A DNA stretch of 64,000 nt from a virus: positions 1 through 64,000 of IMG/VR virus record IMGVR_UViG_3300020198_000006. One strand, given 5' to 3'. The notes below the pieces were generated by a model that saw only the letters and a list, made by a program, of their open reading frames with translations, searched no databases and was not told where the DNA came from. Both the position numbers and the translations under genes were made by a program. This document shows, piece by piece, positions 2,653-37,559 of this stretch. Position 1 is the stretch's first letter. Every line of letters begins with the position of its first letter.

Positions 2653-5499
2653 TTAGATATTATCGAATGATGCTCCAGTAGGTGTTATTATGAACTCAAC
2701 GTCGATGAATTCAAGTGAACGTGTTGGTTTGATGTAAATCTTACCTCTAAGAGTGTTTGCATCAATGTCCTCAGGGTCATTTGATACGGTTACACGGAAT
2801 TCGTATAAACCTCTTTCTCTCTTTATAGACTCAAGAATTGGGTTTACCAATCTCAAGAACTCGTTTCTTACTTGTTCGTCGTTTTGTTCGAATAGTAATC
2901 TAACTGCAACCGCTGAAATTAACTTTCTGGCTCTTAACAAGAGTCTTCTTACGTTAATTCTGTCCAACGCAGATTCTCTAACCTGAAGGGTTTTGTTACC
3001 CCATATGATTGTACCTGTATCTGAGAAGGTTGCGATTGGGTTAATTCTGTTTTTATATAATTCGTCTCTTTCGTCTAAGGTCAATTTCTTGGTTGCTTTA
3101 ATCGCTTTTACCAAACCTCTTGAGTAACCCGCTACCGCGAACCAAGGGAATGACACATTATCCGTAAGGGCTATGTTTCTTACAACCTCACCTGTTGGTG
3201 GAACAAGCAATTGGGTGGCATTATCTTGGTCTCTAACCTGAATCCATGGCCAATATGTGGCTGTGTAGTTAGTGTCAAGAGAAACACCATCCAAAGCGGC
3301 TACCACTTCCTCAACTGTTGAGAAATTAGGTGGTGATATGATATAAAGTGAATCCGCTCTATCATTTTCCATGATGTCGATTGCCTGTGAAGTCAATGAA
3401 CTATGGTCATAGAAGTTGATACCGGGAGATGCGAATATGTTGATATCCACAGCTTCAGGGTTTGAGTAGGTCTGAATACCTTTTAAGTATGAATAGTAGT
3501 CAGAATTACCAACCGTAGTACTGAATACACCACCATTTGACGTGTTTCCACTAATATACGTTGGCTTTCCGAAGATATAAGAATCCCCGAATGTTCTAAC
3601 TTCTCTGTAAATGTCCCATCCGTCAAATCCACCACACACCGCAAAAGTGAATTTACGGTAGTTGATGTTAGTCATAACATTATCAACACCTGTTTGACCC
3701 TCTAAATCATACGATGTAGTTGTGAATGTTGTACCTGTGATTGTTGATGCGTTTGTAGATAAGTGGAAACCTTTAGTAGTACCTACCGCTGCAGCTCCCT
3801 TATACTTAAATAAATCCTTATCAAATCCTGTCTGAGAAGATAAACCAAAGGTTATCTTTCTGATTTTGTCCCCACCTGAAAGGATGGGGGTACCATCGGC
3901 TTCGTATCCCATAACGTCACCAGCGTCAAAGAATTGAGTTTTAAACATAACAGAACCCAAGGTTGTATCTGAGAACGATGTATTAGCCACGAATCCTTTA
4001 AAACCAGCAGGGAACGCATCTACGGGATGGTTAATTGCCATGTTTAACATGATATACTTAGAACGTAATTCATATTCACCATCAGATGTACCAACTTTTC
4101 TCGCCACATAACCTGGTAAGTCAGGGTTCATTGAACATCTTGTGAATTTTTCAAGAACAAGTTGATTGTCGTCAGTATCGTTGAAATCACGAACTAACAT
4201 ATCAAATTCACCTGTTTCTAAGTTAATATTAATGATTGAAATTTTTACTTGTTCATTCGCTGCGTTACCATCACAGATAGTAATCACTTCAAACAAATCA
4301 GATACTTCACCACCACGAACTTCAGATACAACCATTGGTGACATTGGGGTATCCCATTGTTCCGCGAAGTTTGAACCTTCTGAAACAAACACCTCATCTA
4401 AACTTAGACCTCTTACATTACCTTGTTGGAACGCCGCTTTTAAGTATGCGGAATATGCTTCGTGAACAAAGATAGGTACTTCCTTTCTTGGTTTATCAAA
4501 CACATCGGTACCTAAAACCTTAGTTATGTACTTAGATGATGTTGTATCCATAGAACATGTAAATGTCTTACCACTACTTGTTGTACCTGTAACCTGAATT
4601 GTAAATTCAGAGAATGGATTCACCCTAAGTGAACTACCCACAACATTGAAACTTGTGTTTCCTGTCAATTCAAGACCTAAAGTTTGACCTGAGTATGAAC
4701 CTCTTGGTCTGAAAGCCGCCACAACTTTATTATTGTGTTCACTTTTAACTGTTGAGTTATAAACAAATTGAGTCACATTGAATTGTTCTGTGCCACCTGA
4801 TGTGTATACAAATAAGAAGGAGTAAACCTCAGTACCACCTGAATTACATACTATATTATACCATTCTTTACCATTTTGGTTGTTAGCATTATTTAAACCT
4901 GTTAAAGGTGAAATTACTTCTAAACTTGTGGTTAGACCTGATGTAGACGATGATGGTACGTTACCAATAACAAACCATTGTCCCGTATTTCCTGTTGTAT
5001 TACCACTAAATGAGGAGAATAGATAATTGTCCATAGTTTGACCATCATATGAAGTAATTCCTGAAATGTTTCCAAAGAATGTACTACCAGTTATTTGGTT
5101 AAGGGTGGATGGGTCACACGTACCTGTGGTTGAGCCACTCAAAGAACCCAAGGTTAAACCGCCGAGGGTTTTAATTGCGTAAGTCTTAACAGGTTTATAA
5201 CCTGTAAGACCGAGAATTCTTGTTACAAAAAGTTGATTTGATTCCTCAAGATAAGATTTTGCTACGTAAGGTAACTCAAATTTTGGGTTACCATTACCAT
5301 CTTTTACTGGTGTAGAACCTCCGAAGTAAAGTTTAAACTCATCATAATCTGTTACAAGGATTGGTTCAAAAGCGGGACCTTTAAGGGTCTCACCAACTAA
5401 ACCAAGAGTTGTAACACCAACACTCTGTGCTACGAATGTTAAATCTTTTTCTGATGTGTAGACACCCGGAGATACAAATACTCTATTTGAATTTGCCAT
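2653..5499 (-). CDS. Contractile tail sheath protein (T4 gp18-like)
   Basis: N-terminal FVSPGVY, C-terminal PWFAVAG..RG, LYKNRINPI, WGNKTLQ, DRINVRRLL, KPTRSLEFI. Confidence 0.95.
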   Translation of the reverse strand: MANSNRVFVSPGVYTSEKDLTFVAQSVGVTTLGLVGETLKGPAFEPILVTDYDEFKLYFGGSTPVKDGNGNPKFELPYVAKSYLEESNQLFVTRILGLTGYKPVKTYAIKTLGGLTLGSLSGSTTGTCDPSTLNQITGSTFFGNISGITSYDGQTMDNYLFSSFSGNTTGNTGQWFVIGNVPSSSTSGLTTSLEVISPLTGLNNANNQNGKEWYNIVCNSGGTEVYSFLFVYTSGGTEQFNVTQFVYNSTVKSEHNNKVVAAFRPRGSYSGQTLGLELTGNTSFNVVGSSLRVNPFSEFTIQVTGTTSSGKTFTCSMDTTSSKYITKVLGTDVFDKPRKEVPIFVHEAYSAYLKAAFQQGNVRGLSLDEVFVSEGSNFAEQWDTPMSPMVVSEVRGGEVSDLFEVITICDGNAANEQVKISIININLETGEFDMLVRDFNDTDDNQLVLEKFTRCSMNPDLPGYVARKVGTSDGEYELRSKYIMLNMAINHPVDAFPAGFKGFVANTSFSDTTLGSVMFKTQFFDAGDVMGYEADGTPILSGGDKIRKITFGLSSQTGFDKDLFKYKGAAAVGTTKGFHLSTNASTITGTTFTTTSYDLEGQTGVDNVMTNINYRKFTFAVCGGFDGWDIYREVRTFGDSYIFGKPTYISGNTSNGGVFSTTVGNSDYYSYLKGIQTYSNPEAVDINIFASPGINFYDHSSLTSQAIDIMENDRADSLYIISPPNFSTVEEVVAALDGVSLDTNYTATYWPWIQVRDQDNATQLLVPPTGEVVRNIALTDNVSFPWFAVAGYSRGLVKAIKATKKLTLDERDELYKNRINPIATFSDTGTIIWGNKTLQVRESALDRINVRRLLLRARKLISAVAVRLLFEQNDEQVRNEFLRLVNPILESIKRERGLYEFRVTVSNDPEDIDANTLRGKIYIKPTRSLEFIDVEFIITPTGASFDNI

Positions 5500-5619
5500 T
5501 TTTAAAAGTTTGGTTAATTTATTTTATTATTCTTATAAATATCTTTGTTTTTAGCAAAGATTTCCTGACTTTTTTCAAAAAGGATAATTAAAAATCCTTT
5601 TTTATCATTATTTATCTTT

Positions 5620-5799
5620 ATGGAAAAAGAGAACCTAAAAAACATCAAAGTCAGCGAAAAACATCATCAAATGTTGAAGGAATATTGTGATAAAAACGGA
5701 CTAAAAATTTATAAAGCAGTCCAAAAGTGGATTGAGGAATCTTGTAAATCTAAGAAAAAAGATATCTACGAGAAAAAAGATATCTACGGGGAAAATTAA
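5620..5799 (+). CDS. Small ribbon-helix-helix-like DNA-binding protein (59 aa)
   Basis: Below ORF-track cutoff: MEKENLKNIKVSEKHHQMLKEYCDKNGLKIYKAVQKWIEE...; beta-alpha-alpha pattern typical of RHH. Confidence 0.55.
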   Translation: MEKENLKNIKVSEKHHQMLKEYCDKNGLKIYKAVQKWIEESCKSKKKDIYEKKDIYGEN

Positions 5800-7049
5800 C
5801 TCAAGTAAACGACACTTACTTTTGAACCAACTGCGGGTGCTGATAGTAATTTAAACTTGTAGTTACCTGAAACTTCAAAACCGACACCTTCATCTTCCAC
5901 AAGACCATTAATATCTAAACTGATAATACTATTAAGAGCATTTGATGTGGTAAACTCTAAACTTGAGCCATTATAGGTAAAACTTTCATTAATTACATTT
6001 AATGGTTTACCAAATGTATCTATAAATGTGTCATTTCTACCTTTATAATATGTGATAGTCACGACTGAACCATCTAATGGGGGTTGAACAAAGGTTATTT
6101 TTGATGTTTGAGCAACGTGGAGGTAATCCACATTTCGTATTTGTATAAGACCATTAATTGCAACAGTAAACAATACATTTATTGTTTCGCCCACACTAAA
6201 GACGGTTTGAACACCATCAGCAGGAAAAGACATGATTGTTATCTCAATAGTTTTGACAATATACTTTTTGGTATAATTGTTACTCTTAATAAACTCGTTC
6301 AATAAAAACATTCTACTAACCGCCGGTTTAACCTCAAACTCCTCTTCGTCTATTAGTAAACCAAGCATTATAAAGGTGTAATTTTGAATATAGAACCTAC
6401 GACCTTCCAAAGTATCCATTGGAGTGCTATCCTCGATTCTATCTAAAACAAGAGGTATGTAATGACCTTTTACGCTTGTATATGACTGACGAGACGAGAA
6501 TTTCTGTAAAACAATCCTATTGAACTTATTAATATCCCTAAGTTTTGTACATATAATTGTTACATCAAAAGTTATATCTATTGGTACAGGTTGTGGTATC
6601 TTATATATGTCGGCACCCATTTGTGTCCCGTTCCATGTCGGAACAGAGGCATAGAAGAAATCTCTTCTGTCTGGTATTGTTCGTTGAATTGATGGATTAG
6701 TACCGGGTTGAACATCTGGTCTTCTGATTACAGCTATAAAGGGTAACTTCATATTACCATCCTCATCTGCAAATGTCCAATTGTTTGAAACCTCACCCCA
6801 TCTTTGAATCGTCAAGATTCTTGGAATAATGGGTATTTGGTCACCACCAGAGACAACCTTGAAATTTTGTTTTACAAAATCAAGCATACCTAAATCAAGG
6901 TCCTCATGTAAAATAGAATCGGGTAAGAAGGTATCTGATTTAGTTATTCTCTCCAATAACCCTTTTCTCCTCCCTACAATGTCAGGACCATTCATGTCTT
7001 GTTTAACCCCGTAAACTTGAACATTATTTTTTCTTTTAGGTATTCCCAT
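5796..7049 (-). CDS. Tail terminator / sheath stabiliser (gp15-like) with C-terminal beta-repeat domains
   Basis: PQPVPIDITFDVTI motif, position beside sheath and neck genes; two C-terminal NGL....Y/F...PP.GS.V.I.Y repeats. Confidence 0.55.
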   Translation of the reverse strand: MGIPKRKNNVQVYGVKQDMNGPDIVGRRKGLLERITKSDTFLPDSILHEDLDLGMLDFVKQNFKVVSGGDQIPIIPRILTIQRWGEVSNNWTFADEDGNMKLPFIAVIRRPDVQPGTNPSIQRTIPDRRDFFYASVPTWNGTQMGADIYKIPQPVPIDITFDVTIICTKLRDINKFNRIVLQKFSSRQSYTSVKGHYIPLVLDRIEDSTPMDTLEGRRFYIQNYTFIMLGLLIDEEEFEVKPAVSRMFLLNEFIKSNNYTKKYIVKTIEITIMSFPADGVQTVFSVGETINVLFTVAINGLIQIRNVDYLHVAQTSKITFVQPPLDGSVVTITYYKGRNDTFIDTFGKPLNVINESFTYNGSSLEFTTSNALNSIISLDINGLVEDEGVGFEVSGNYKFKLLSAPAVGSKVSVVYLS

Positions 7050-7051
7050 GA

Positions 7052-7564
7052 TTATATTCCTCTAAATTCAGATTCTTGTGTTGCTACACAAATTATTGTT
7101 CTATAATGTGGCTTAAAACCAAACATATTATGTTTATTGTCCGATGTTACTTTACCATCATTGGTTACAGTATAGTATCTAACTCTTTCTTCACTTTCAG
7201 GATAACCGACGTAGTCACCATATCTAATATCTATTTTCAATTCTTCTAAATGTTTAATGTAAACAGATATTATCATATTACCCGGCTCTAAGTACCTACC
7301 TAACCCACCCTTATAGGTGGTGTTTTTTGGCTCCTCAATCTTTACTAAACCATTAAACTCAACAGGAGGTAAAAATTTAATTTGGTCTTTACCAACTTCA
7401 GCATAAACCTCATCCGTATCGGTCTTTTGTTTGTCAACTCTAAAGAGAACCAATTTCATATTTAAATCCCCATGAAGGTATTCTTGACCTATCATTTGAT
7501 TTAAATCAAAATCTGCTTCTGAAAAGAATTTACTGACTCTTGTTATGGGTAATTTATGCTTCAT
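7052..7564 (-). CDS. Neck / head-closure protein (gp14-like)
   Basis: EVYAE..KF.PPVE and IRYGDY motifs; likely ATG at 7564 just after the late-promoter motif at 7570-7576. Confidence 0.6.
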   Translation of the reverse strand: MKHKLPITRVSKFFSEADFDLNQMIGQEYLHGDLNMKLVLFRVDKQKTDTDEVYAEVGKDQIKFLPPVEFNGLVKIEEPKNTTYKGGLGRYLEPGNMIISVYIKHLEELKIDIRYGDYVGYPESEERVRYYTVTNDGKVTSDNKHNMFGFKPHYRTIICVATQESEFRGI

Positions 7565-7614
7565 ACTCAATAAATAGTTCAATTATTCTTTCTATTTTAT
7601 TATATTTAGGTTAT

Positions 7615-9366
7615 ATGCAGAACAAGATTCTAGAAATAGAGGCGAGAGACATACTGCTTGAATATGAAGGTTTTAACAATCAATTACTTGATTGGAAACA
7701 CAAATTTCATAATGTTAAAAATTTTCAATTAACAAGACCCCAAGCGGAATATGTTACAAAGTATTACGAAACAGTACCTCGAGTTGCTCGAAAGCATATC
7801 ACCATTGCCAAGAATTTTGGTGAAAAAATTATGGAGGACAAGAAGTTAACCAAAGCACCTGAAAAGATTTGGTGTGAAAAATTATTGTGTGAAAGCGATA
7901 AGGCATACCATATATGGGGTAAAATTATTGATTCCGAAACGAATCATGCGATGTGGATTCCAAAATCATCTATTATCCAAGAAGAAAAAAAATTAGATAG
8001 AATAATAGATTATACTCCTTACTCACATAGACCGCCAATGGAACATCAAAAAGAAGCCATTGAAAAATTGTTAGCCAATGACAAATACATTCTTGCTGAT
8101 GATATGGGTCTTGGTAAAAGCACGTCCGCGATTATTGCCTCACTAGAATGTGGAGCAAAAAAAGTTCTAATTATTTGTCCCGCATCACTAAAGATTAACT
8201 GGTCAAGAGAGATTGAAAATTACTCAAGAAAAAAATCATTAATTGTTGAAGGCAGAAAATGGGGTTCCACATTTGATTATTATATAATCAATTATGATAT
8301 ATTAAAAAACTATCACACAACCGATAAATCAGAAGATAGTGAAGCATATAAATTAATCATAAATGAAAATTTTGATTTGGTAATAATTGATGAGGCTCAC
8401 TATGTTTCAAATCCAACAGCACAGAGAACAAAACTAATTAATGATGTTGTAAAACAAATACCTAAGGTATGGTTGCTTACAGGAACCCCAATGACATCAA
8501 GACCGATAAACTATTATAATTTATTAAAAATTGTTAATTCACCAATTGCATTAAATTGGCAAGGTTATGTCAGAAGATATTGTGCGGGTTATCAGTTTAA
8601 AGTTGGGGGTAAAAAAATATGGAACACGGGTGGGGCAAGTAATTTAGATGAACTAAGAGAAAGAACAAAAAATTTGGTATTAAGAAGAATAAAAACCGAC
8701 ATTCTCGATTTACCCGAAAAAATTATAACTCCTATTTTCTTAGATATGCAGAGTACTTTCTACAATGAAGAGTTAGAAGAATTCATGAAAATATCTAAGG
8801 AAAATAAAAAGAATGAATCAATTAGTGTAACATTAAATCGTCTAATGAAAATTAGACAAGTAATTGCATACGAAAAAGTACCATACACATATGAGTTAAT
8901 TGATAAGTTCACAGAACAAGGTAAAAAAGTAATTGTATTTACAAACTTTACTATGAGTTTGGATATGATTCACGAGAAGTATAAGAAAAATTCTGTGACC
9001 CTTGATGGTAGAATGTCAAAAGAAAGAAGACAAGAAAGTGTTGACAGATTTCAAAATGAGGATAAAATAAAAATATTCGTATCCAATATTAGAGCGGGTG
9101 GCGTTGGAATTACTTTAACTGCGGCAGAAGCAGTAATAATGAATGACCTGTCATTTGTACCATCAGACCACTCCCAAGCAGAAGATAGGGCATATAGATA
9201 TGGACAGAAGAATAGTGTACTTGTTTACTATCCTATTTTTGAAAACACAATCGAAATGATTGTTTATAATATATTACAAAAGAAAAAGAATATTATCGAC
9301 CAAGTAATGGGAGATAATGAATATTCAGAAAGTTTTGCTCAATCACTTCTTAATGAGCTCCTCTAA
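7615..9366 (+). CDS. SNF2/SMARCAL1-like helicase
   Basis: LADDMGLGKS (Walker A), IIDEAH, LTGTP, GVGITLT, QAEDRAYRYGQ; likely ATG at 7615. Confidence 0.93.
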   Translation: MQNKILEIEARDILLEYEGFNNQLLDWKHKFHNVKNFQLTRPQAEYVTKYYETVPRVARKHITIAKNFGEKIMEDKKLTKAPEKIWCEKLLCESDKAYHIWGKIIDSETNHAMWIPKSSIIQEEKKLDRIIDYTPYSHRPPMEHQKEAIEKLLANDKYILADDMGLGKSTSAIIASLECGAKKVLIICPASLKINWSREIENYSRKKSLIVEGRKWGSTFDYYIINYDILKNYHTTDKSEDSEAYKLIINENFDLVIIDEAHYVSNPTAQRTKLINDVVKQIPKVWLLTGTPMTSRPINYYNLLKIVNSPIALNWQGYVRRYCAGYQFKVGGKKIWNTGGASNLDELRERTKNLVLRRIKTDILDLPEKIITPIFLDMQSTFYNEELEEFMKISKENKKNESISVTLNRLMKIRQVIAYEKVPYTYELIDKFTEQGKKVIVFTNFTMSLDMIHEKYKKNSVTLDGRMSKERRQESVDRFQNEDKIKIFVSNIRAGGVGITLTAAEAVIMNDLSFVPSDHSQAEDRAYRYGQKNSVLVYYPIFENTIEMIVYNILQKKKNIIDQVMGDNEYSESFAQSLLNELL

Positions 9367-10533: not shown

Positions 10534-10585
10534 GAAAAATACTTAATATCCAAATATACGGATATTTATAATAAAAAACAATAGA

Positions 10586-16933: not shown

Positions 16934-16940
16934 ATTATTA

Positions 16941-20651: not shown

Positions 20652-21872
20652 ATGTCAAAAATTAGAATATTAGCAATACCACCGGACAAATTTGGTGTGG
20701 GTAAATATAGAATATTAGACCCATTTAAATATATCGGAGAACACCATGGAGATGAATTCCACATTGACATTACCATGAACGCGGACGATAATGATGAATA
20801 TTTTAAAAACTACGATATTGTTGTTTTTCATAGTTTTATTCATCAAATGTCACTTGAAAAAAATATTGATAGAATCAACAAATTAAAATCACAAGGGATT
20901 AAGGTTGTCATGGATATCGACGACTATTGGTCTGTTGACCATAGACACCCTATGTATCACCAAATTAAATCAAACGAAATACCAAGAAAAAAAGTAGAGA
21001 TGATGAAGTTATCTGATTGGGTAACTTGTACTACTGAAATTTTTGAAAAGTCAATTCGTTCAAAAGCCGGAGTTAAAAACGTGGTTACATTTCCAAATGC
21101 GGTCAACCCTAATGAATCTCAATTTCAACCCAATCCGGTTGAGTCTGATAAAATTAGATTTGGGTGGTTAGGAGGTTCAACACATTTACATGATATTAGT
21201 TTAATGTCATCAGGAATTTCTTCTGTCCTTGGTCAAACCAATAACACTCAATTTGTTCTGTGTGGGTTTGATTTAAGAGGTAATATAACCGAAATTAACC
21301 CAATAACAAAAGAACAAAGAGCTCGACCCATACAACCAATGGAAACTGTTTGGTATAAGTATGAAGAGATTTTTACAGACAAGTATCAGTTTGTTGATGA
21401 GGATTATAAAAACTATCTATTAACTTTTACTGAAACAGAATTTAATACTTCTGATAGAAGATATAGAAGAGTATGGACTCAACCTGTGAGCAAATACGCC
21501 TCAAACTACAATCTTTTTGATATTTCATTAGCACCATTAGTTCCAAGTGAATTTAATGCCAATAAATCACAATTAAAAGTGATTGAAGCGGGATTTCATA
21601 AAAAGGCATTAATTGCTAGTGATACCCAACCTTATACCCTTGATTTAATTGGAGCAATAGAATATGGTGGTAAGTTTAATGACAAAGGAAATTGTTTATT
21701 AGTTTCCCCAAATAAAAATCACAAACAATGGTTCCAACACATGAAAAGATTAGTCGACAATCCTAACATGATTGAAGACTTAGGGAATAAACTTTACGAA
21801 ACTGTCAAAGACAGATATTCATTAAAAAATGTTTCTAAAAATAGAACAGAATTTTTCAAATCAATAATTTAA
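20652..21872 (+). CDS. Glycosyltransferase (GT-B, GT4-like)
   Basis: GVGKYRI, VVMDIDDYW, RFGWLGGSTH, DISLAPL...FNANKSQLKVIEAG. Confidence 0.85.
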   Translation: MSKIRILAIPPDKFGVGKYRILDPFKYIGEHHGDEFHIDITMNADDNDEYFKNYDIVVFHSFIHQMSLEKNIDRINKLKSQGIKVVMDIDDYWSVDHRHPMYHQIKSNEIPRKKVEMMKLSDWVTCTTEIFEKSIRSKAGVKNVVTFPNAVNPNESQFQPNPVESDKIRFGWLGGSTHLHDISLMSSGISSVLGQTNNTQFVLCGFDLRGNITEINPITKEQRARPIQPMETVWYKYEEIFTDKYQFVDEDYKNYLLTFTETEFNTSDRRYRRVWTQPVSKYASNYNLFDISLAPLVPSEFNANKSQLKVIEAGFHKKALIASDTQPYTLDLIGAIEYGGKFNDKGNCLLVSPNKNHKQWFQHMKRLVDNPNMIEDLGNKLYETVKDRYSLKNVSKNRTEFFKSII

Positions 21873-24400: not shown

Positions 24401-24576
24401 AGGTAAATCTTTTTAAATACGAAACCATAAAATTATGTGTAGAAAGAATATTAAACGAAATACAAGAAATTGACGAAGAAATGGGTCCATTTGGGCAAGG
24501 TGATTTGTCAGTATCATTTAAAATAGCCTTTAACACACTAATAAAATACAAAATCTTGATAGAAGAAGATGAATAA
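24295..24576 (+). CDS. Hypothetical protein
   Basis: 93-aa ORF coupled to the next gene. Confidence 0.6.
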   Translation: MVEIFGKNYYIDIEGITSKCQTGNAVQNEDGSKSLEVNLFKYETIKLCVERILNEIQEIDEEMGPFGQGDLSVSFKIAFNTLIKYKILIEEDE

Positions 24577-26412: not shown

Positions 26413-26413
26413 T

Positions 26414-27112
26414 ATGCCCCGTAAAAGAACCCAAAAAATATATTTTGGGGAGGAGCAAGAACAAGCGGTAGTCCGATACTTACAATCAGACTCCGAATCA
26501 GAAAAGAACAAGATATTCAATGAATATTTAAGAGAACCTCTCATCATAATGGTTGAATCAATTATTCGACGTTATAAATTATATAGAAAAGACTTTGAAT
26601 TTGTAGATATCCACGCGGATACGATGTCGTTTTTGATTACTAAAATTAACAAATTCGACCATACAAAAAACCATAAAGCGTACTCCTATTTTGGTACAAT
26701 TTGTAAGAATTATCTTATGGGCGCTATTCAAAAAGACGCAAAGGAAATGAATAGAAGTGTATCCTATGATGATATATCGTCAGACTTGGAAGAAAGCACC
26801 GCACATTCATACACCATAGACGAGGCCCACATAGACTATAGAGACGTTATAATCAAGTTTACCATAGAAATGGAGGAATTTATGGAGGTGGAAGATTTAT
26901 CCGAAAACGAACAAAAATTAGGTTTTGCATTACTTGAAATATTTGGAAACTTTGAAAAGATATTCCAAATTGGTGACGGTAACAAATTCAATAAAAACCT
27001 AATTCTTTTGTCATTAAGGGAGATGACTTCACTTTCAACCAAAGAAATAAGAATTTCCATGAGAAAGTACAAAAAACTATATGAGTGGATAATCTTCAAG
27101 CTCATAAATTAA
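26414..27112 (+). CDS. Phage late sigma factor (T4 gp55-like)
   Basis: KFDHTKNHKAYSYFGTICKNYL resembles sigma region 2 of gp55 (FD..K...FAYFTQI). Confidence 0.7.
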   Translation: MPRKRTQKIYFGEEQEQAVVRYLQSDSESEKNKIFNEYLREPLIIMVESIIRRYKLYRKDFEFVDIHADTMSFLITKINKFDHTKNHKAYSYFGTICKNYLMGAIQKDAKEMNRSVSYDDISSDLEESTAHSYTIDEAHIDYRDVIIKFTIEMEEFMEVEDLSENEQKLGFALLEIFGNFEKIFQIGDGNKFNKNLILLSLREMTSLSTKEIRISMRKYKKLYEWIIFKLIN

Positions 27113-27133
27113 CAAATTATCTATTTATAGAGT

Positions 27134-27511
27134 ATGAGAGAAAAAAAGAATATAATATCTCTTGACACGGATTCGGCTCTTGCACTTATGCAAGAAATCT
27201 ATAATGATGTTGTAGAACAAAAGAATACCGCCTCAATGATTACAAAGAAGATGTTGACATTCATGAAAGACGCTGAAGATATGAGTGTTATTGGTCCCGT
27301 AATTAAAGAACAACAAAAGATATTAAACGATTGTACCGAAAAGAAAATTTCATTGGTCAAACTTCAGAGTGCCCTACTTAAGCAAACCCTAGGTTCAGGT
27401 TCCGGTGTCGGAGGTGGTAAATTACAACTAACCGACGAGGATAGAGTTTTGTTAGAGAAGTTAATGGACGACTCTGACGAAAACCCCAAACCCGGAATCT
27501 ATAAAACCTAA
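27134..27511 (+). CDS. Hypothetical helical late protein (possible terminase small subunit)
   Basis: 125-aa all-helical ORF, late promoter at 27122; TerS call is a guess from size and pattern. Confidence 0.4.
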   Translation: MREKKNIISLDTDSALALMQEIYNDVVEQKNTASMITKKMLTFMKDAEDMSVIGPVIKEQQKILNDCTEKKISLVKLQSALLKQTLGSGSGVGGGKLQLTDEDRVLLEKLMDDSDENPKPGIYKT

Positions 27512-29460
27512 TGAGTAAGTTAAAAAATACCAAAAAGAGGCTTCAATCAAAAATTGAAGCAATTAAAAAGATTAACGACGACCCAAAGGGGTTTACGGAT
27601 ATTGTTGCGGATAAGTATCTAAAAAATATCCCATCAACAAATGATTTTGTAGGTAAAAAACTTGACGCATTAAAAAATAAAAGAGCCCAAAAAAAGGAGA
27701 ATAAAAAAGATATTTTTGAGGAACTTTTAGATGTTGTTGAACAATTTTTAGGGGTAGACAAGAAAAATTCTGAATCAGAAGCCAATGTTGTACAATCGGG
27801 TACAACCACAAACCCTGAAAAAAATAAAACAAAGAAAAGGGTAAAGCAACACGCACTCTCATCAGTAGAAAAAACATTAGATTCTGCAAAAGATATTGTT
27901 GTTAAAAGATTAAGTGAGGCCCTTTTTATGGGTGACGGAATTTGTGGTAGTAATGGTACATTAACCGGTGACACAATAAATTTAAAACCCGAAGAATTTG
28001 ATTTTCTTGATATTCTTACTATGGACCCCACAAGTCCATGCGGTCAAATTATATATGAACCAAAGAATCCGGATAGAAACAAACAAAAGGTAAACAGAGA
28101 ATTATATAAAATATTTAGCGGAGGTTCATATACATTCACTTCAAATAATAATACTTCATTATTCAATGCAAGTTGGAGTAGTGCGAATCAACATTATGTA
28201 ATTACAGGTCTAACTCAAGGAAATACTAACGGAATTAAAGTTCAAAACTTTATTTCGGATTATTATTCATCTATTGAATTTCCCGAGCTAAATGACATTG
28301 CAAAGACTGCAATGTTACTTACAATACAGGGCGGTCAAAAATGCGGTAAAACAAAAAAATACGAAGCATCTATAAATAATATTGATAGATTATTAAAAAA
28401 ATTATTATCAATATGTGGTTCAGAGAATAACAAAGATGACTTAAAAAAACAAAACGCGGTTGACATGTTCGACCAAAGTGAAGAAAATATTGAGTTTTAC
28501 TTTGATTTTGACGATGTTGAAGGGATTGACTTAGATGATGAAGATTTGAGATATAGAAGAGTTCTTAGATTTAAAGATTGTTATAATTTTGAAATGGAGG
28601 TCGATGATACTCATATTGAAGACTTTATATATCTCACAAAAAATAAAGATATTAAAAAGGCGATTGATGATTCTCTTAATAAAGTAGCTGCTGACGCAAG
28701 TGAACAATCTGGATTGTCGTTATCCATATCAGAGCTATTAAATAGTTTACTTAATAGTTTCATTTTAAGTTTACCAAAGGCAATAATTATGGCTGTTTTA
28801 TCGGCTAAATTATTTTTACCTCTGATAATTTTATACAAATATTTCAAAACACTCGCATTAAATGTTGTTGTAAACATTAAAGAATTAGTTAAGAAATTCT
28901 ATAAGGCAGTTTATTTTATTATTAAAGATTTATTTTGGTTGTTTATTACCGAATTTTGGAGACTTATTAAAATTGATTTAATTGCGTTTGTAACAAGATT
29001 GGTTAGAAAAATATTAAAAGAAAAATATAAAAGATATCTTTTAATCGTTTCTTCGTTACTTGCTCTTTTAAGAAAAGCTAAGGAAACCGAAATAGATAAT
29101 TGTTATACTATTTTTCAAACAATACTAAACACCGTCACAACCGCATTGAATGGAAAAACACCATTTGATATTGCATCATTTTTATTATTAGCATCAGACC
29201 AAGCGTCAGGTTTTAGTAAAGAGAGGGCGTTTGTAAATATTAGTGAAAAAATGGCGGCTGCGGGTATCCCAACAGGACCAATATTTGGTGAGGATAATGA
29301 TTTTATGACAGCCATTAAGAATGTAATTGATGGGTACTCCGAAGAAGAAGACGCAAATTCATTTGTCAAGATTGTACTTAAAGGAGGTGTACTACCAGGA
29401 CCAACGGGTGGTGCGGTAATTCCACCCGGAATAATCTCAGGTGTGGGTAAAAAGATTTAA
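27511..29460 (+). CDS. Large probable virion/baseplate protein
   Basis: 649-aa ORF upstream of gp5-like gene; hydrophobic central segment. Confidence 0.55.
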   Translation: MSKLKNTKKRLQSKIEAIKKINDDPKGFTDIVADKYLKNIPSTNDFVGKKLDALKNKRAQKKENKKDIFEELLDVVEQFLGVDKKNSESEANVVQSGTTTNPEKNKTKKRVKQHALSSVEKTLDSAKDIVVKRLSEALFMGDGICGSNGTLTGDTINLKPEEFDFLDILTMDPTSPCGQIIYEPKNPDRNKQKVNRELYKIFSGGSYTFTSNNNTSLFNASWSSANQHYVITGLTQGNTNGIKVQNFISDYYSSIEFPELNDIAKTAMLLTIQGGQKCGKTKKYEASINNIDRLLKKLLSICGSENNKDDLKKQNAVDMFDQSEENIEFYFDFDDVEGIDLDDEDLRYRRVLRFKDCYNFEMEVDDTHIEDFIYLTKNKDIKKAIDDSLNKVAADASEQSGLSLSISELLNSLLNSFILSLPKAIIMAVLSAKLFLPLIILYKYFKTLALNVVVNIKELVKKFYKAVYFIIKDLFWLFITEFWRLIKIDLIAFVTRLVRKILKEKYKRYLLIVSSLLALLRKAKETEIDNCYTIFQTILNTVTTALNGKTPFDIASFLLLASDQASGFSKERAFVNISEKMAAAGIPTGPIFGEDNDFMTAIKNVIDGYSEEEDANSFVKIVLKGGVLPGPTGGAVIPPGIISGVGKKI

Positions 29461-29461
29461 T

Positions 29462-31221: not shown

Positions 31222-31244
31222 TTTGATATTTATTAAATAAAAAG

Positions 31245-32621
31245 ATGTCATATTTCCGTTCATATTTCGAGAAAAACAATACAATTATTAAAAATTCTCA
31301 GGTTAATACCGCGAAAAATCCAACCACGGAGATTTTTTACGGGTCCAGTTTTTCCAAATTTTTATTTAAAGTAGATTTTACGGATTTAATATCTAAAATC
31401 CAAAATGGTGATTTGGTTATTAATTCAAATACCAAACATTACTTAAAAATAACCAATACGGTGTCAGGAGATGCTCAATTGGTGGGTGAGAAAAGAAACA
31501 CGGGAAGACAAAGAACCACATCTTTTGATTTGATTCTTTTTCAAGTACCTGAGAATTGGGACGAGGGTGTTGGTTTTGATTATGAAGATGGTGGATATGA
31601 TTATACTGTTGGTAACAATACATTTGATGAAAGACCTTCTAACTGGTATAATAGAACGACTTTAAATCCGTGGACAACACCCGGCGTATACCAAAGTACC
31701 CCCACAATAGTTAGTACAATACACTTTGATAATGGTGACGAAAATATAAATGTGAATATTACAGACTACGTTAATGGTATTGTACTATCAGGTAACACCA
31801 ACCACGGGTTAGGTTTGGCTTTTGCCACATTATATGAAAATATTAATGATGAATATGACCAATCGGTCGCATTCTTTACCAAATACACACAGACATTCTA
31901 TGAACCCTTTGTTGAAACAGAATTTGCAGATAGAATTGAGGACCATAGACAAAACTTTATAGGTGAAAGACAGAATAATTTATATCTATATGTAACAAAA
32001 GGAACAAACTTTTATAACTTAACAAACCCCCCAACTGTGGATATTCTCAATAGTTCTGGAGTTGCAATTTCCGGATTAACAGGGTTAACTACAACAAGAA
32101 TAAGAAAAGGAATATACAAACTAACCTTTGGTTTAACAGGTCAGTTATGTGATGGTAATAGATTCTTCTATGATAAATGGAAAAATCTATCTATAGATGG
32201 GGTTTCAATTGCGAATGTAACTCAAAAGTTCGTACCAAAACCATTTACCGATTACTACTCATTTGGTTCAAACCCAACCGAGGCTCAAAAATACATAGTT
32301 CAGTTTTTCGGTATTAAACAAAATGAAAGGATTATAAGGGGGGAGTTGAAAAAAATAGTTTTAACATTTAAATCTATTGAAGTACGAATGGCTCAACTAT
32401 TTGAAGATGTTTATTATCGTGTTTTTGTAAAAGAGGGTAAAACCAATGTCATTGTATATGATTGGACTAAAGTTGATATGACAACAACTGAAAATTCATT
32501 CTTTTTGGATACATCATATATGATTCCAAGAGAGTATTTTATGGAGTTCAAAGCCAAAACTCACACGGAAGAAATCTTCTATGATGATTATGTAAAATTC
32601 GAAATATTGTCAGAAAAGTAA
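31245..32621 (+). CDS. Probable virion structural protein (beta-rich)
   Basis: WDEGVG, SNW, FFTKYTQTFYEP; late promoter at 31227. Confidence 0.55.
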   Translation: MSYFRSYFEKNNTIIKNSQVNTAKNPTTEIFYGSSFSKFLFKVDFTDLISKIQNGDLVINSNTKHYLKITNTVSGDAQLVGEKRNTGRQRTTSFDLILFQVPENWDEGVGFDYEDGGYDYTVGNNTFDERPSNWYNRTTLNPWTTPGVYQSTPTIVSTIHFDNGDENINVNITDYVNGIVLSGNTNHGLGLAFATLYENINDEYDQSVAFFTKYTQTFYEPFVETEFADRIEDHRQNFIGERQNNLYLYVTKGTNFYNLTNPPTVDILNSSGVAISGLTGLTTTRIRKGIYKLTFGLTGQLCDGNRFFYDKWKNLSIDGVSIANVTQKFVPKPFTDYYSFGSNPTEAQKYIVQFFGIKQNERIIRGELKKIVLTFKSIEVRMAQLFEDVYYRVFVKEGKTNVIVYDWTKVDMTTTENSFFLDTSYMIPREYFMEFKAKTHTEEIFYDDYVKFEILSEK

Positions 32622-32635
32622 AATATTTATAGATT

Positions 32636-33394: not shown

Positions 33395-33404
33395 ACGTAA
33401 TTAT

Positions 33405-33665: not shown

Positions 33666-34369
33666 CTTCTCAAAAAAGAAGGGCGGAAAAAGAAAATCCA
33701 AAATCAGGTAAAGGTAACACACTCACATTCACTCGTTTTGATGAAAATAGAACCATTACATTGGACTTCACGGAATTTATTGAGTCATACCCCGCACCAA
33801 AAATTGCTTCTCTTAATGAGTCTAAAAATCAATTAAGTGAGGGTTTATTATTTCATATTCAAAATGAAAAACCATTAATTGAAAACGTATTCAGAATATA
33901 CTCTGAAAAATTCTTTGGTTTGTTTAACGAATCAAGAGAATTATTAAACAAAGGTATTCTTGAAGTTTCTGGTGATGATTATGAATTATTAATGACAGAT
34001 ATCGGTAAAACGGGTATCTACGAAGGTGAAGAAGTTTATTTAGATATTCCGTTTATATTAGATGAAGAAGAATATCTTGTTGAAGCGAAACACGGGGGTA
34101 AAAATGTGAACTTGGGTAGACCCTTTAGAACTCCCGGTGGACCAAAAAAGTTTGCGGTTTATGTAAAGAACAATAGTGGTAATGTTGTTAAAGTAACTTT
34201 CGGCGACCCCAATCTTAAAATAAGAAATAATAATAAATCAGCCGCAAAATCATTTAGAGCTCGTCACAAATGTGACCAAAAGAAAGATAGAACTACGGCA
34301 GGATATTGGAGTTGTAACATATCAAAATATCGTAAAGCTCTCGGTATCAAATCATCAAACCCTTGGTAA
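33662..34369 (+). CDS. Basic head-internal-like protein, C-terminal segment
   Basis: KKFAVYV...VTFGDP...SFRARHKC....AGYWSC motif. Confidence 0.6.
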   Translation: MTSQKRRAEKENPKSGKGNTLTFTRFDENRTITLDFTEFIESYPAPKIASLNESKNQLSEGLLFHIQNEKPLIENVFRIYSEKFFGLFNESRELLNKGILEVSGDDYELLMTDIGKTGIYEGEEVYLDIPFILDEEEYLVEAKHGGKNVNLGRPFRTPGGPKKFAVYVKNNSGNVVKVTFGDPNLKIRNNNKSAAKSFRARHKCDQKKDRTTAGYWSCNISKYRKALGIKSSNPW

Positions 34370-34662
34370 TGGATTTTCCATTTGAAGAAGAACAACAAGG
34401 CGGGTTTTACATTAGAACATTTTCATCGAACTTACCCGATATGGAGTTAAAGTGGCATTTTGATGAAGAGGATAGAACTGTTGTTTGTGAATATGAAACA
34501 GATTGGATGTTTCAAATGGACGACGAACTACCAATCGTTATAAAAAAAAATACCCCCATTTTTATTCCTGAAGGTACATATCATCGTATCATTAAAGGAA
34601 CAGGAGACTTAGTTGTCAGGGTAAAAAAACACCTGAACCCCACATTCTTTGAACATTTCTAA
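34363..34662 (+). CDS. Cupin-fold small protein
   Basis: LKWHFDEEDR ... IFIPEGTYHRIIKG. Confidence 0.65.
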   Translation: MVMDFPFEEEQQGGFYIRTFSSNLPDMELKWHFDEEDRTVVCEYETDWMFQMDDELPIVIKKNTPIFIPEGTYHRIIKGTGDLVVRVKKHLNPTFFEHF

Positions 34663-35058
34663 TGATATTTTTTGTTGTTCATTCCATTTTTCATTATTTT
34701 TAGTTGTACATATTTCTTTACAAAAAATAGTTTTTATACCTGCATTTATTATTCCTTTAGCACAATCTGTACAAGGAATACCACAAGTAAGATAAATTGT
34801 AGAATTTTTTGTAGATACCCCTGTTCTTGCAGCATTAATGATACTATTGATTTCTGCGTGTACCATGTAAAAGTACTTTTCAGGTCTCTCCTGACGTTCT
34901 TTTTTAGAATCATCCATTCCCCTCGGAAATGAATTATAACCCGTAGAAAGTACCTCATTGTCCTCCCCAACGATAACCGCACCTATTTGTGTTGATTGGT
35001 CTTTGGATTTTAACTTAACTTGTTCCGCCAATCCTAAAAAATACTCTGTCCAATTCAT
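34609..35058 (-). CDS. dCMP deaminase
   Basis: SKD.STQIGAVIV, TGYN, HAEINSI, PCTDC; likely ATG at 35058. Confidence 0.93.
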   Translation of the reverse strand: MNWTEYFLGLAEQVKLKSKDQSTQIGAVIVGEDNEVLSTGYNSFPRGMDDSKKERQERPEKYFYMVHAEINSIINAARTGVSTKNSTIYLTCGIPCTDCAKGIINAGIKTIFCKEICTTKNNEKWNEQQKISLEMFKECGVQVFFYPDN

Positions 35059-35369
35059 ATTAACTTTTGTGGTATCCAATACCACACCCTATCTTCTGAG
35101 TATCGGTTTAAAGACTTACCTTCCTTTTTTTCGATTATTTTGCTTATTTGTTGAATATGATTACTATTGGATATATCAACACCAACCATATATCCCGAAC
35201 CATCTTTTAAGTGAATGGTTTCTTTAATTGGATGTTTATACTTACCCTCATCGTATAAGATTAACATTTTAACCATTTCATCCTTTTTCATTTTACACTC
35301 AATACTTCTTTGGTGTATTAATTTTTCAAGGACATCCAATCTTAATTTACTATAATCAATTTCAGACAT
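35055..35369 (-). CDS. Hypothetical protein
   Basis: 104-aa ORF; host-type TATATTTG promoter element just upstream. Confidence 0.6.
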   Translation of the reverse strand: MSEIDYSKLRLDVLEKLIHQRSIECKMKKDEMVKMLILYDEGKYKHPIKETIHLKDGSGYMVGVDISNSNHIQQISKIIEKKEGKSLNRYSEDRVWYWIPQKLI

Positions 35370-35428
35370 AATTGCAAATATACCGAATATTTTTTGGAAA
35401 TCAAAATAATTTTTATTATACTTTCAAT

Positions 35429-35797
35429 ATGGAATTTGTTAGTGATTTTAAAAAGGATTTAAACTTAGGTCAAGAAGGTGAAAAAAGAGCTGCGAAGATT
35501 TTTGAAATACCTGTAACGGGTATTGAGGTAAAAGACGACCAACAGGCACTATACACCGGTAATCTTTTTATCGAATATGAAAGTAGAGGTAAAAAAAGTG
35601 GAATTTCTACAACGGAAGCGGAGGTTATATTTTTTCTAATTAAAGGAAGTGCGGGTGGATTATTTTTCTACACAGAAGAACTTAAAAAGATATTAAGACC
35701 ATTAATTAAAACGCACACAATTGTGGGTGGTGATAATAACACAAGTAAAGGAATATTAATTAGTATTTCTGAATTAATGAAACTACGTGTAAAATAA
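35429..35797 (+). CDS. PD-(D/E)XK-like endonuclease-fold protein
   Basis: F..DL..GQEGE, IEVKDD....TGNLFIEY..RGK.SGISTT.A, GGDNNTSKG. Confidence 0.6.
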   Translation: MEFVSDFKKDLNLGQEGEKRAAKIFEIPVTGIEVKDDQQALYTGNLFIEYESRGKKSGISTTEAEVIFFLIKGSAGGLFFYTEELKKILRPLIKTHTIVGGDNNTSKGILISISELMKLRVK

Positions 35798-35825
35798 AAA
35801 ACCCCCGAGAAATCGGGGGTTTTTA
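35795..35825. terminator. Bidirectional terminator between the nuclease-like gene and MCP
   Basis: AAAAACCCCCGA-GAAA-TCGGGGGTTTTT. Confidence 0.8.
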
Positions 35826-35840
35826 TATTAAGATAAACGA

Positions 35841-37559
35841 TTATCTTAAAGTGTCAAGACTGAATGTAACCAATCCATGTACGTCGATTACACCATAGTA
35901 ACGGTTGTTAACCATTTTCTTAGCGTATCTCGTCATAATACCCTTAATTGGGGTAAAGTTGAACGGATTATACATAGTCGGAGTCAACTGTAGAGGTACA
36001 TATGGTGCGTAAATGTAACCAGCGTCTAACAATGACTTACCTTTGTGACCGACGATAACCTTAGTAGGTGGTAAGTATGGGTCACGGTACACTTGGTAAC
36101 GACCTGATAAAGAACCGATTTTCTCGATACCCATGTTGTATTGGTCTTGCTCAGGAGCTGCGCTTGATACGTGGAAATACTCCAAATCATCAAATATTGC
36201 AGATACCTCAGAAGATACTACAATCCAGTTAGCTCCACCACGAAGAGTTGTCTTGTGGATTTGAGCAGATAATTGGTTAATTTTGGTAACCAAAGTTTGG
36301 TTCCAGTCCTTTTGAGTATAACCCAAGAATGGAGTGTTACCACTTGCTCCGTATCTCCATTCGTTGTAGTCCCACTTAGCTCTCCAAGCGGCACCTTTAC
36401 GAAGGTCACGAAGAATTTCACGGTCAATTTCAGCCGCAACTTGCTCAGACAATAAAGCTGTTAATTCAGCTTCAGCGTCGATGTTGTGGAATGCTGACAC
36501 GTCTTGAGCCAATTCAGGAGACCAGCTAGCTCTTAACTTTCTTTCACTAACAGAAACTGTTACTGATTGAAGGTCGAAAGTTACTTCACCGATTTCTTCT
36601 TCGAACTCAAGAGATGCATATGACCTGTAACTTACCATAACGTTAACAAGTTCCAAGTCGTTAGAAGAGAAGTTAGCAGGTGTGAAACCTGATACTGCGC
36701 TATATGACTCAAGGTCAACAGCCAAGAAGATTTTACCTTCTTCATCACAGATGTCTTGGAATTTGTCCATGTTAGTACCGCCTTTTTGACCGTACTCGAT
36801 AAGACCTTTACCATATTTCTGTGTTACAACGTTGAAATTTTTAACACCATTGTTTCCAGTGTTACCAGTAATTTCAACACTTAAAGATGAAAGGAACTCG
36901 TCGGTATCCATAAGGCTACCATCAGCACCTAACATTTTACCTTGTCCTGCTTTAGTGAAACCACTAATAACAACAATTGCACTGCTAACGGATGCACCAC
37001 TTAAGGCGGCTGTACTTTGAGTTGGTACACCATTGCTGAAAGTTACGAAAGCGAAAGGCGTAGCTGTGGTAGTTGTAGCGGCTCCTTTAGAGTAATCGAA
37101 GACACCAGAAGAAGCTGAATCATCGACCTCATAGAAACGGTCATAAAGATTTTTTGTATTACCGCTATAATATGCGTCGGGGTCAGCCTGTGTATTAGGA
37201 TAACCGAAAGGTGCAGCTTTTCCGTCTGCAATTTTAGGTACAAAGAAGAACAATTTACCGATTGGTAAGTTCATTGCCTGTACAGAAACGATGTCGTTTG
37301 CTAACAATTTAGAGAAAACGCGACGAATGATTGGGAAAACCACGGTCTCGAAAGAACCACTTGCATCAGCAGTTGCGGCTTCGTTGATTAAGTAAGACGC
37401 TTGGTTTTCGTATAATTGTGCTACGTTATCTTTTTGGTGACCGTCAAGTCCTTCAAGGAACCCGAGGTCATCCCATTTTTTAATGGTATCTTCTTTGATA
37501 ACACGAAGGTGCTTAAGACCGATGTTACCAACCATACCTGATTCTAATAGTGCTCCCAT
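35841..37559 (-). CDS. Major capsid protein (T4 gp23-like)
   Basis: PIIRRVF...VSVQAM, RKLRASWSPELAQD..AFHNIDAEAELT, YAPYVPL, GIMTRY. Confidence 0.97.
   Translation of the reverse strand: MGALLESGMVGNIGLKHLRVIKEDTIKKWDDLGFLEGLDGHQKDNVAQLYENQASYLINEAATADASGSFETVVFPIIRRVFSKLLANDIVSVQAMNLPIGKLFFFVPKIADGKAAPFGYPNTQADPDAYYSGNTKNLYDRFYEVDDSASSGVFDYSKGAATTTTATPFAFVTFSNGVPTQSTAALSGASVSSAIVVISGFTKAGQGKMLGADGSLMDTDEFLSSLSVEITGNTGNNGVKNFNVVTQKYGKGLIEYGQKGGTNMDKFQDICDEEGKIFLAVDLESYSAVSGFTPANFSSNDLELVNVMVSYRSYASLEFEEEIGEVTFDLQSVTVSVSERKLRASWSPELAQDVSAFHNIDAEAELTALLSEQVAAEIDREILRDLRKGAAWRAKWDYNEWRYGASGNTPFLGYTQKDWNQTLVTKINQLSAQIHKTTLRGGANWIVVSSEVSAIFDDLEYFHVSSAAPEQDQYNMGIEKIGSLSGRYQVYRDPYLPPTKVIVGHKGKSLLDAGYIYAPYVPLQLTPTMYNPFNFTPIKGIMTRYAKKMVNNRYYGVIDVHGLVTFSLDTLR

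Follow-up and report, generated by a model that had tools for sequence, protein, structure and literature searches.

Genes of the window and occurrence of the motif

This work concerns a short amino acid motif, [ST]GxT (Ser or Thr, Gly, any residue, Thr), in proteins encoded by a 64,000-nt stretch of viral DNA (positions 1 to 64,000 of IMG/VR record IMGVR_UViG_3300020198_000006; here called the window). The window makes up the first 64 kb of a viral contig of 94 kb, ~28% complete, which was assigned to a T4-like jumbo phage with a genome of ~300-345 kb. Two relatives are 310,691 bp (93% complete) and 345,454 bp (complete, with terminal repeats) long. Below, G041 is the complete 345-kb relative and G006 is a near-complete relative whose sheath is 76% identical to that of the window. 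The window encodes a tail sheath, a gp23-type major capsid protein (MCP), three glycosyltransferases (GTs) and a putative fourth (Table 1). A prohead protease was also recognised by homology.

Table 1. Features of the window, with the number of [ST]GxT motifs and the basis of each assignment
Feature	Position	Strand	[ST]GxT	Basis and remarks
Tail tube homologue	1835-2323		0	By homology
Tail sheath, 948 aa	2653..5499	-	14	PF04984 1.6e-10 and PF17482 3e-7, above cut-off; phrog_23 2e-64; BLASTP to T4 gp18
Motif-rich inserted sheath domain, residues ~104-320	4540..5190	-	12	Holds 12/14 sheath motifs
SNF2 helicase	7540-9366		0	By homology
PolB polymerase, 965 aa	11701-14598		1	By homology
Thr/Pro-repeat protein, 611 aa	15098..16933	-	4	1.3-1.6 expected, p 0.03-0.08, marginal
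GT4-like GT-B, 406 aa	20652..21872	+		phrog_7162 6e-42; core gene, also in sister lineage (45-47% identical)
Putative GT-B, 355 aa	24569..25636	+		Weak GT1 matches below Pfam cut-offs; PDB 8xsg "putative glycosyltransferase" E 0.005
GT2-type GT-A, 259 aa	25633..26412	+		PF00535 2e-6, above cut-off; sister homologue 45% identical
Sigma-like gene	26414-27112			Sub-threshold Sigma70_r2 match only, E 0.004
649-aa protein, no family	27511..29460	+	3	0.26-0.42 expected, p 0.002-0.012; follows late-promoter-like TATTTAT operon start
458-aa protein, no family	31245..32621	+	3	0.5 expected, p 0.01-0.02
Major capsid protein, gp23-type, 572 aa	35841..37559	-	5	PF07068 1.2e-74; phrog_138 1e-66; BLASTP to T4 gp23
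MCP insertion, residues ~135-324	36588..37157	-	3	Motifs at 199, 231 and 290 inside; a fourth (132-135) straddles the start
Portal	41135-42931		0	By homology
TerL	42994-44769		0	By homology
ClpB/C-like ATPase	50134-52152		0	By homology
Calcineurin-like phosphoesterase	58031..58849	+		PF00149 2e-14; 3' end overlaps start of next GT-A gene by 26 nt
Small GT-A, 228 aa	58824..59510	+		PF13712 1.3e-28
TGTT/TGPT low-complexity linker, residues 497-536 of 627-aa protein	62237..62356	-		Ten overlapping matches in one Thr/Gly/Pro tract
dUTPase (ordinary dut-like)				By homology
PhoH				By homology

The original prediction held that [ST]GxT is enriched in virion proteins and is the acceptor site of a phage-encoded O-glycosylation system. 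On recount, its numbers were exact for the sheath (14, the same words), the MCP and the 611-aa, 649-aa and 458-aa proteins. When the whole sheath was shuffled, 1.57 motifs were expected against the 14 observed at residues 121-650 (p≤0.001). Twelve of these lie within residues 121-312, and a local shuffle of residues 100-320 gave an expectation of only 1.27 (p 2e-4). This region is 42% Ser+Thr+Gly. Within it, [ST]GxS was found 0 times against 1.08 expected, GxT 14 times against 4.3 and GxS once against 3.8. Shuffling in blocks of 40 residues gave 14 against 2.35 for the sheath and 5 against 0.55 for the MCP (both p≤0.001); across shuffles the MCP expectation was 0.4-0.55.

Enrichment over composition-shuffled controls thus holds for the sheath, the MCP and the 649-aa and 458-aa proteins. 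As a statement about virion proteins it stands for the sheath and the MCP. Enrichment of the 611-aa protein falls short of significance, and the 649-aa and 458-aa proteins are putative particle proteins only. The 649-aa protein gave no identity in Pfam, PHROG or the ESM Atlas. The low counts given for other proteins were also exact: one in PolB and none in the helicase, the ClpB/C-like ATPase, portal or TerL. The remaining proteins of the 94-kb contig, when pooled, have ~11 motifs against ~10.4 expected. The TGTT/TGPT array of the 627-aa protein is present. It is a low-complexity Thr/Gly/Pro linker, a phenomenon separate from the motif excess.

The motif in related genomes

Six large genomes were enriched in the motif (Table 2). 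No individually enriched protein was found in T4, Microcystis phage Mel-JY01, phage NCTB, 100 kb of the huge phage LR756508 or two Bacteroidota chromosome stretches. Distant sheath homologues in control phages have 0-1 motif.

Table 2. Observed over expected [ST]GxT and odds ratios in enriched and control genomes
Genome	Obs/exp	Odds ratio
G000	3.27	3.75
G006	2.24	2.83
G041	2.08	2.22
G049	2.99	4.03
G050	3.10	3.60
G051	1.98	2.06
T4	1.35	1.16
Microcystis phage Mel-JY01	1.00	1.07
Phage NCTB	1.38	1.20
Huge phage LR756508, 100 kb	1.00	1.01
Two 200-kb Bacteroidota chromosome stretches	1.6	1.24-1.30

G006 has 244 motifs genome-wide against 109 expected. The ratio is ~1.2 at 15-105 kb, 2.3-4.3 over 180-255 kb and 8.0 at 195-210 kb. 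Eight G006 proteins reach p≤0.001 in local shuffles, for example proteins of 580 aa (11 against 0.8), 721 aa (14 against 1.5) and 368 aa (9 against 1.1), and none of the eight has a Pfam or PHROG family. Their genes lie downstream of a gp25 homologue; in G041 the enriched genes lie downstream of gp25 and Baseplate_J homologues. Judged by gene order, this is where baseplate-distal and fibre genes sit.

All three-residue gapped words were scanned in the G006 tail module after removal of five Thr/Pro-repeat proteins. TGxT ranked first (58 against 10.1, z 15) and SGxT second (36 against 8.1, z 9.8). In the distant genome G041, TGxT and SGxT were the top patterns without Cys. In ten enriched G006 proteins, [ST] at -1 and Thr at +2 of Gly co-occur with an odds ratio of 9.1 (p 3e-25). 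At +2, Thr is 2.4-fold and Val 1.4-fold enriched. Position -2 is Ile, Leu, Phe, Tyr or Val in ~59% of sites, and x is nearly any residue but seldom Pro.

The motif is written with both the TCN and AGY families of Ser codons and with all four Thr codons, and its last Thr is at background codon usage. Because the Ser and Thr codons at motif sites are mixed, the excess is selected at the protein level, and a DNA-word bias is ruled out as its source. BLASTP found no similarity among the enriched proteins. The motif therefore arose convergently; an origin from a common domain or repeat is ruled out. These results confirm that the enrichment is real, surviving shuffles and topping an unbiased pattern scan. 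The motif is selected at the protein level and is confined to particle and tail-module proteins; in outward-facing particle proteins it is five to ten times too frequent.

Mucin-like Thr/Pro tracts are frequent in G000, G006 and G049-G051. The words TPT and PTP occur 24 times in the 611-aa protein of the window, and seven G006 proteins (loci L096-L099) are rich in them, with 186 in one protein of 2703 aa. There are 115-364 per genome in G049, G050 and G051, compared with 3-6 per 10,000 residues in G041, the sister lineage described below, T4 and other controls. Thr/Pro repeats are a classic type of O-glycan substrate.

Two other observations were made during these counts. In the 200-305 kb region of G041 (L177-L182), Cys-rich words are over-represented (CPxC, 9 against 0.2; likewise CxxCG and CxxHG), which suggests repeated zinc-binding or disulfide motifs in tail proteins. 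The small phage G043 (31 kb, 92% complete), in which a distant GT4 homologue is the only GT found, encodes a 322-aa protein (G043:C1:5505-6473, L200) with 4 [ST]GxT against 0.32 (p 3.5e-4).

A sister lineage nearly free of the motif

A sister sublineage (G042, G045-G048, G056-G058 and G061; all fragments) is fully syntenic with the enriched genomes. Its tail tube is 82% identical to that of the present lineage, its MCP 67%, its portal and TerL 63% and its PolB 60%. In whole sister fragments the motif is observed at 0.27-1.48 of expectation, and orthologues of the enriched proteins have few motifs or none (Table 3).

Table 3. [ST]GxT motifs in orthologous proteins of the two lineages
Protein	This lineage	Sister lineage
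Sheath	11-14	0, 0, 0, 2
MCP	4-5	0
580 aa	11	1
368 aa	9	1
286 aa	5	1
1947 aa	9	1
1602 aa	6	0
649 aa	3-4	0
458 aa	3	0

Since the sister orthologues are nearly motif-free, these proteins can fold without the motif, which rules out a purely structural cause and points to a selective agent specific to the lineage. In G041, motifs are few or absent in some orthologues of the enriched G006 proteins, and other proteins are enriched instead.

The sister lineage keeps the 406-aa, 355-aa and 259-aa GTs at 39-47% identity. For the tube, PhoH, sigma, PolB, helicase, portal, TerL and MCP, identity between the two lineages is 58-82%, so the GTs rank among the conserved genes that evolve fastest. A search of the 90 kb of covered synteny found no gene that is common to the enriched genomes and missing in the sister lineage.

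Structure of the sheath domain and turnover of sites

The AlphaFold model of the sheath is confident only at residues 104-372 (pLDDT 75-87) and poor elsewhere (mean pLDDT 43). A wide fold search with the whole sheath was dominated by its C-terminal helix. The motif-rich domain has a weak likeness to the protruding domains of other sheaths (9ezm_A, Z 6.6 over 99 aligned residues; 8jaj_a, Z 5.3). In the model, motifs lie in the middle of a long strand (121), after helices (137, 165 and 187), at or before the start of strands (220 and 309), in a hairpin loop (234), in a tight two-residue turn (270) and at a strand end (304). Because these contexts are mixed, the motif is not one turn type, and a single type of beta-turn is ruled out as its meaning.

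BLASTP of the MCP against T4 gp23 aligned only residues 58-134 and 325-545. The segment separating them has 190 aa here, compared with 91 aa in T4. The MCP motifs had been placed mostly in this insertion. Three of the five are inside it and a fourth straddles its start (Table 1); the fifth is elsewhere. Among 80 relatives, the number of motifs in the MCP varies from 0 to 5.

We aligned 117 sheath homologues that are 50-92% identical in the motif-rich domain. Each has 5-14 motifs (mean 9.4). Together they use 24 alignment positions, six of which are conserved and 18 of which carry the motif in only 3-60% of sequences. Control words ([ST]GxS, [ST]AxT, [ST]xGT, [ST]GxxT and others) occur at 0.3-1.6 times expectation, compared with 6.1 times for [ST]GxT. 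At sites 147, 170, 280 and 290, Gly and the Thr at +2 are lost jointly, for example SG[VKIL]T versus SDK[IKS]. The motif is compact, specific, floating in position, convergent, dispensable for the fold and, we infer, exposed. In these respects it behaves like a recognition site.

The G041 sheath (G041:C1:240355-242814, L179) has no equivalent of residues 112-253 of the window's sheath, the larger part of the motif-rich domain, yet carries 5 motifs where 1.1 are expected.

The four glycosyltransferases

The original prediction named four GTs as the enzymes behind the motif. Those at 20652, 25633 and 58824 were identified by profile matches, and the one at 24569 has weak matches below cut-offs. 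All four occur in 6/6 enriched large genomes, at only 32-49% identity in G041 and G050. The 355-aa putative GT-B is conserved in G006, G041, G049-G051 and the sister lineage. PDB sequence searches with the four GTs gave no or marginal matches, and NCBIfam gave sub-threshold matches only. Ten neighbours of the GT genes had no Pfam or PHROG match.

The family profile of the 406-aa GT matches the GT4 enzymes PglA, TarM, TreT, MshA and BshA at 1e-9 to 1e-4, and the family comprises 325 clusters at E<1e-30. The model (pLDDT 96.6) is a generic GT4 fold with GlgM, PglA, MshA and BshA as its top Foldseek matches. T4 alpha-glucosyltransferase (1y6f_B) ranks 38 with TM 0.59, and the protein O-glycosyltransferase SdgB ranks 43-46. 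Since this generic fold is similarly close to varied transferases, the acceptor cannot be read from it. P0310, a distant relative of this GT, had no relative among the viral contigs searched.

The 259-aa GT-A gene shares 4 nt with the preceding 355-aa GT gene, and its end lies 2 nt ahead of the sigma-like gene. The reported order of two GTs directly upstream of a late sigma factor is thus present, with the identity of the sigma factor below threshold. The word TATTTAT occurs 78 times in the 94-kb contig (both strands). Many structural genes (tube, sheath, portal, TerL and others) have it ≤120 nt upstream, and it also precedes the 611-aa gene, the 125/649-aa operon (at 27134) and the 458-aa gene (by 18 nt). 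A scan of the window found none directly upstream of the four GT genes.

No route to T4-type glucosylation of DNA was found. The four GTs have no BLASTP match to T4 open reading frames (ORFs), a gp42-type hydroxymethylase was not found, the thymidylate synthase homologue of G006 matches T4 td only, and the dUTPase is dut-like. Tet_JBP (PF12851) gave no match in five clade records, and it gave none in any control genome either.

As a separate observation, the thymidylate-synthase-family ORF of G006 (G006:C1:102672-103964, L136; 430 aa) has a Pfam match split into 1-161 and 159-245 by ~45 extra residues. Flavobacterium phage immuto has a copy of the same length at 27293-28570 that is 59% identical.

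One glycosyltransferase that may co-vary with the motif

Three of the GTs (20652, 24569 and 25633) are kept in the motif-free sister lineage and therefore do not predict the motif. The claim that the four GTs together explain it fails on this point. What is left of the predicted co-occurrence is the PF13712 GT-A. It was found in 6/6 enriched genomes, and also in G052 and G055. Protein and Pfam profile searches found it in 0/11 sister-type fragments, which are incomplete. The co-variation of this one GT with the motif is suggestive at the level of sequence comparison.

There are 58 core genes of G006 that are common to G041, G049, G050 and G051, and 43 of them (~74%) were seen in sister fragments. 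Thirteen of the 15 unseen genes fall in one uncovered block (G006 169-202 kb). The remaining pair consists of the PF13712 GT-A and a gene of 81 aa.

The phosphoesterase and PF13712 GT-A genes are also adjacent in G006. G059 and G060 have the phosphoesterase (41% identity) without an adjoining GT-A. In G041 (L176:16778-18433, -) and G050 (L340:17083-18720, -), the GT-A is fused N-terminal to a GT4-type (PF13439) domain in proteins of 545-551 aa. The PF13712 homologues of G049, G052 and G055 lie in open frames of 505-540 aa. A literature search on PF13712 returned nothing relevant.

Discussion

Hydrophobic-[ST]-G-x-T could be a sequon-like recognition motif, possibly for O-glycosylation. We put this forward tentatively, as a possibility that falls a little short of being probable. 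A ~300-kb T4-like freshwater clade would have written one surface motif, independently and repeatedly, into unrelated particle proteins: the outer domain of the sheath, the insertion of the capsid protein and large proteins encoded downstream of the baseplate wedge genes. Since the same proteins fold without the motif in the sister lineage, the excess reflects selection by something in trans. From this we infer a reader; that it would be a glycosyltransferase, and which one, are steps beyond that. The motif would be the acceptor or recognition site for a phage-encoded modification of Thr or Ser that takes place in the cytoplasm, either ahead of assembly or while it proceeds. O-glycosylation begun by the PF13712 GT-A may be the best candidate for such a modification, with the other three GTs extending the glycan or serving another, older function. 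Of the predicted acceptor sequon, the recognition-site behaviour thus stands and the link to four GTs narrows to one. The host's periplasmic D-[ST]-[AILVMT] system was set aside as the modifying system, as it cannot reach cytoplasmic particle proteins.

A more ambitious version is that hydrophobic-[ST]-G-x-T is the first O-glycosylation sequon to be defined in a tailed phage. The PF13712 GT-A would start the glycan on Thr or Ser of sheath, capsid and baseplate or fibre proteins and the other GTs would extend it. The glycans together with the Thr/Pro tracts would coat the entire particle in an abundant clade of freshwater jumbo phages, and in one sublineage loss of the GT would have been followed by erosion of the sequons throughout the particle proteome. 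Taken as a whole, we think this version unlikely.

Several points weigh against glycosylation as the meaning of the motif. The 406-aa, 355-aa and 259-aa GTs are conserved in a lineage without the excess, and the fold of the 406-aa GT is about equally near to small-molecule, lipid-linked, DNA and protein transferases. No TPR or other obvious protein-binding module was found in any of the four GTs. The evidence that the sister lineage lacks the PF13712 GT comes from fragments with ~74% of the core genes, and the uncovered block could hold the gene. The position of this gene differs between genomes. Comparing the enriched genomes with the sister lineage amounts to one phylogenetic contrast. Non-structural proteins show no depletion of the motif. 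Finally, Flavobacterium phage immuto, which lacks these GTs, has a mild genome-wide coupling (obs/exp 1.73, odds ratio 2.1).

The excess might instead be a surface adaptation that involves no enzyme, such as a cap for strand ends or turns, an aid to solubility or against aggregation, or a weak patch for polysaccharides or other ligands, which the host or habitat of some sublineages would favour. The GTs would then have an unrelated role, for example the glycosylation of DNA or of host envelope glycans. The hydrophobic -2 position, the strand-end and loop sites in the model and the preference for beta-branched Thr over Ser all fit this idea, as do SGGTMTG-like words at two sites of a 4057-aa protein. 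Such words occur in a well-known fibre repeat. Three of the GTs are retained where the motif is not, genes of nucleotide metabolism (dUTPase, PhoH) surround the GTs, and the accessible text of the published description of the group leaves their function open (PMC12619734). Set against these points are the same-fold orthologues without the motif, the heterogeneous structural contexts and the preference at +2, where Val and Ile are not favoured as Thr is. One exact four-residue word in at least 10 unrelated proteins is also hard to select without a reader. As for GTs that act on DNA, no hydroxymethylase route was found (td, not gp42), nor a Tet_JBP match, in a family that matched no control. We regard a surface adaptation as doubtful.

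The same comparative logic that supports a GT would serve for another reader in trans: a kinase, an acyl-, methyl- or ADP-ribosyl-transferase, an assembly chaperone, a decoration protein or a host factor. None of the GTs has a direct link to the motif, known families account for a minority of the clade's genes, and a phosphoesterase gene overlaps the PF13712 GT gene. Pfam and PHROGs gave no candidate kinase or other transferase in the window, however, and the covered syntenic 90 kb held no gene that separates the lineages. The one core gene found to track the motif is a GT, and we consider another reader improbable. It is very improbable that the excess comes from composition, from shared ancestry through a common domain or amplified repeats, or from a DNA word bias. 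The enriched regions are indeed rich in Ser, Thr and Gly (42% in sheath residues 100-320), and the 4057-aa protein holds the motif in repeat units spaced 17-19 residues. But the excess survives local shuffles, and words such as [ST]GxS, [ST]xGT, [ST]GxxT and [ST]AxT are at or below expectation. The enriched proteins are dissimilar to one another and their codons are mixed, and several proteins rich in Ser, Thr and Gly lack the excess, for example the 2703-aa protein of G006 (16 against 13.8). An artefact is refuted except for the 4057-aa repeat protein and the TGTT/TGPT linker.

To our knowledge, glycosylation of phage-particle proteins is known only from mycobacteriophages, and without an acceptor code. 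Freeman and colleagues are said to have described, in 2023, virion O-glycosylation of mycobacteriophages by phage-encoded glycosyltransferases. Those virion glycans are at the C-terminal ends of capsid and tail-tube subunits, as quoted in the accessible part of PMC12619734. The candidate system resembles that one in its phage-encoded soluble GTs and in capsid and tail proteins at the particle surface, where the sites here are candidates from sequence. It differs in that the candidate sites are internal and spread over the sheath, the capsid insertion and baseplate-side proteins. The C-terminus of the MCP here is not Ser/Thr-rich and has no motif, and the tail tube homologue has 0 motifs. The host phylum and the set of GTs also differ.

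In the Bacillus anthracis protein BclA, Thr is O-glycosylated in collagen-like Gly-Pro-Thr repeats. SgtA, a soluble GT-A, adds O-GlcNAc as the first sugar to Thr of the Gly-Pro-Thr repeats in the surface protein BclA3 of Clostridioides difficile (PMC7157674). A soluble GT-A and a Gly-x-Thr core are common to that system and the candidate phage system. SgtA, however, carries a TPR domain and its substrate is a regular collagen-like repeat, whereas the phage GT-As have 228-259 aa and no TPR. The phage motif needs Ser or Thr before Gly and lies in globular beta-rich domains, not in triple helices.

The heptosyltransferases Aah and TibC, GtfA/B and SdgB are alike in O-glycosylating, in the cytoplasm and before export, many Ser/Thr sites on beta-rich or repeat surface proteins. 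They share only the generic GT-B fold with the phage enzymes, in which there is no GT9 signature, and there is no [ST]GxT word in those systems. In the chlorovirus PBCV-1, capsid glycans are built by virus-encoded cytoplasmic GTs at sites that are not cellular sequons. The likeness is that the virus glycosylates its own capsid with its own soluble enzymes. The PBCV-1 glycans are N-linked, however, and it is a eukaryotic virus with unrelated capsid proteins. The T4 alpha- and beta-glucosyltransferases are GT-B enzymes of a T4-like phage and of similar size (406 and 355 aa here). They differ in that the GTs here do not match T4 ORFs and that no gp42-type hydroxymethylase accompanies them.

We know of no cultured member of the clade. 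A group of large freshwater phages with predicted Bacteroidota hosts, the "moraphages", has four GT orthogroups in its core genome, and the accessible text of the paper leaves the function of these GTs open (PMC12619734). By gene content the present phage is like the moraphage core as given there in four GTs, a ClpA-like ATPase, PhoH, dUTPase, a sigma factor, the sheath, a gp23-type MCP, gp25 and gp6, and it has in common with that group a freshwater source and predicted hosts in the Bacteroidota (PMC12619734). What the present analysis adds is the sister lineage that lacks the motif excess and the one GT whose presence follows it.

As to the host, a 3.8-kb contig (CAZUUI010000215.1, L138) binned to an uncultured Chitinophagaceae metagenome-assembled genome encodes a PhoH that is 80% identical to that of the phage. 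Either this contig is a piece of phage DNA binned in error, or it points to the host.

If [ST]GxT is an acceptor site, a short and countable word would allow virion glycosylation to be predicted for metagenomic sequences. The ways in which large environmental phages shield or functionalise their surfaces, be it against host defences, grazers or adsorption to debris, could then also be approached directly. The sister lineage is a natural experiment in which the same genes and folds are kept and the motif is erased, and it names one candidate enzyme. Even if the motif is not a site of modification, the case would be an unusual one, in which a single four-residue word would have been selected in concert across the particle proteome of these phages, and this would need another explanation.

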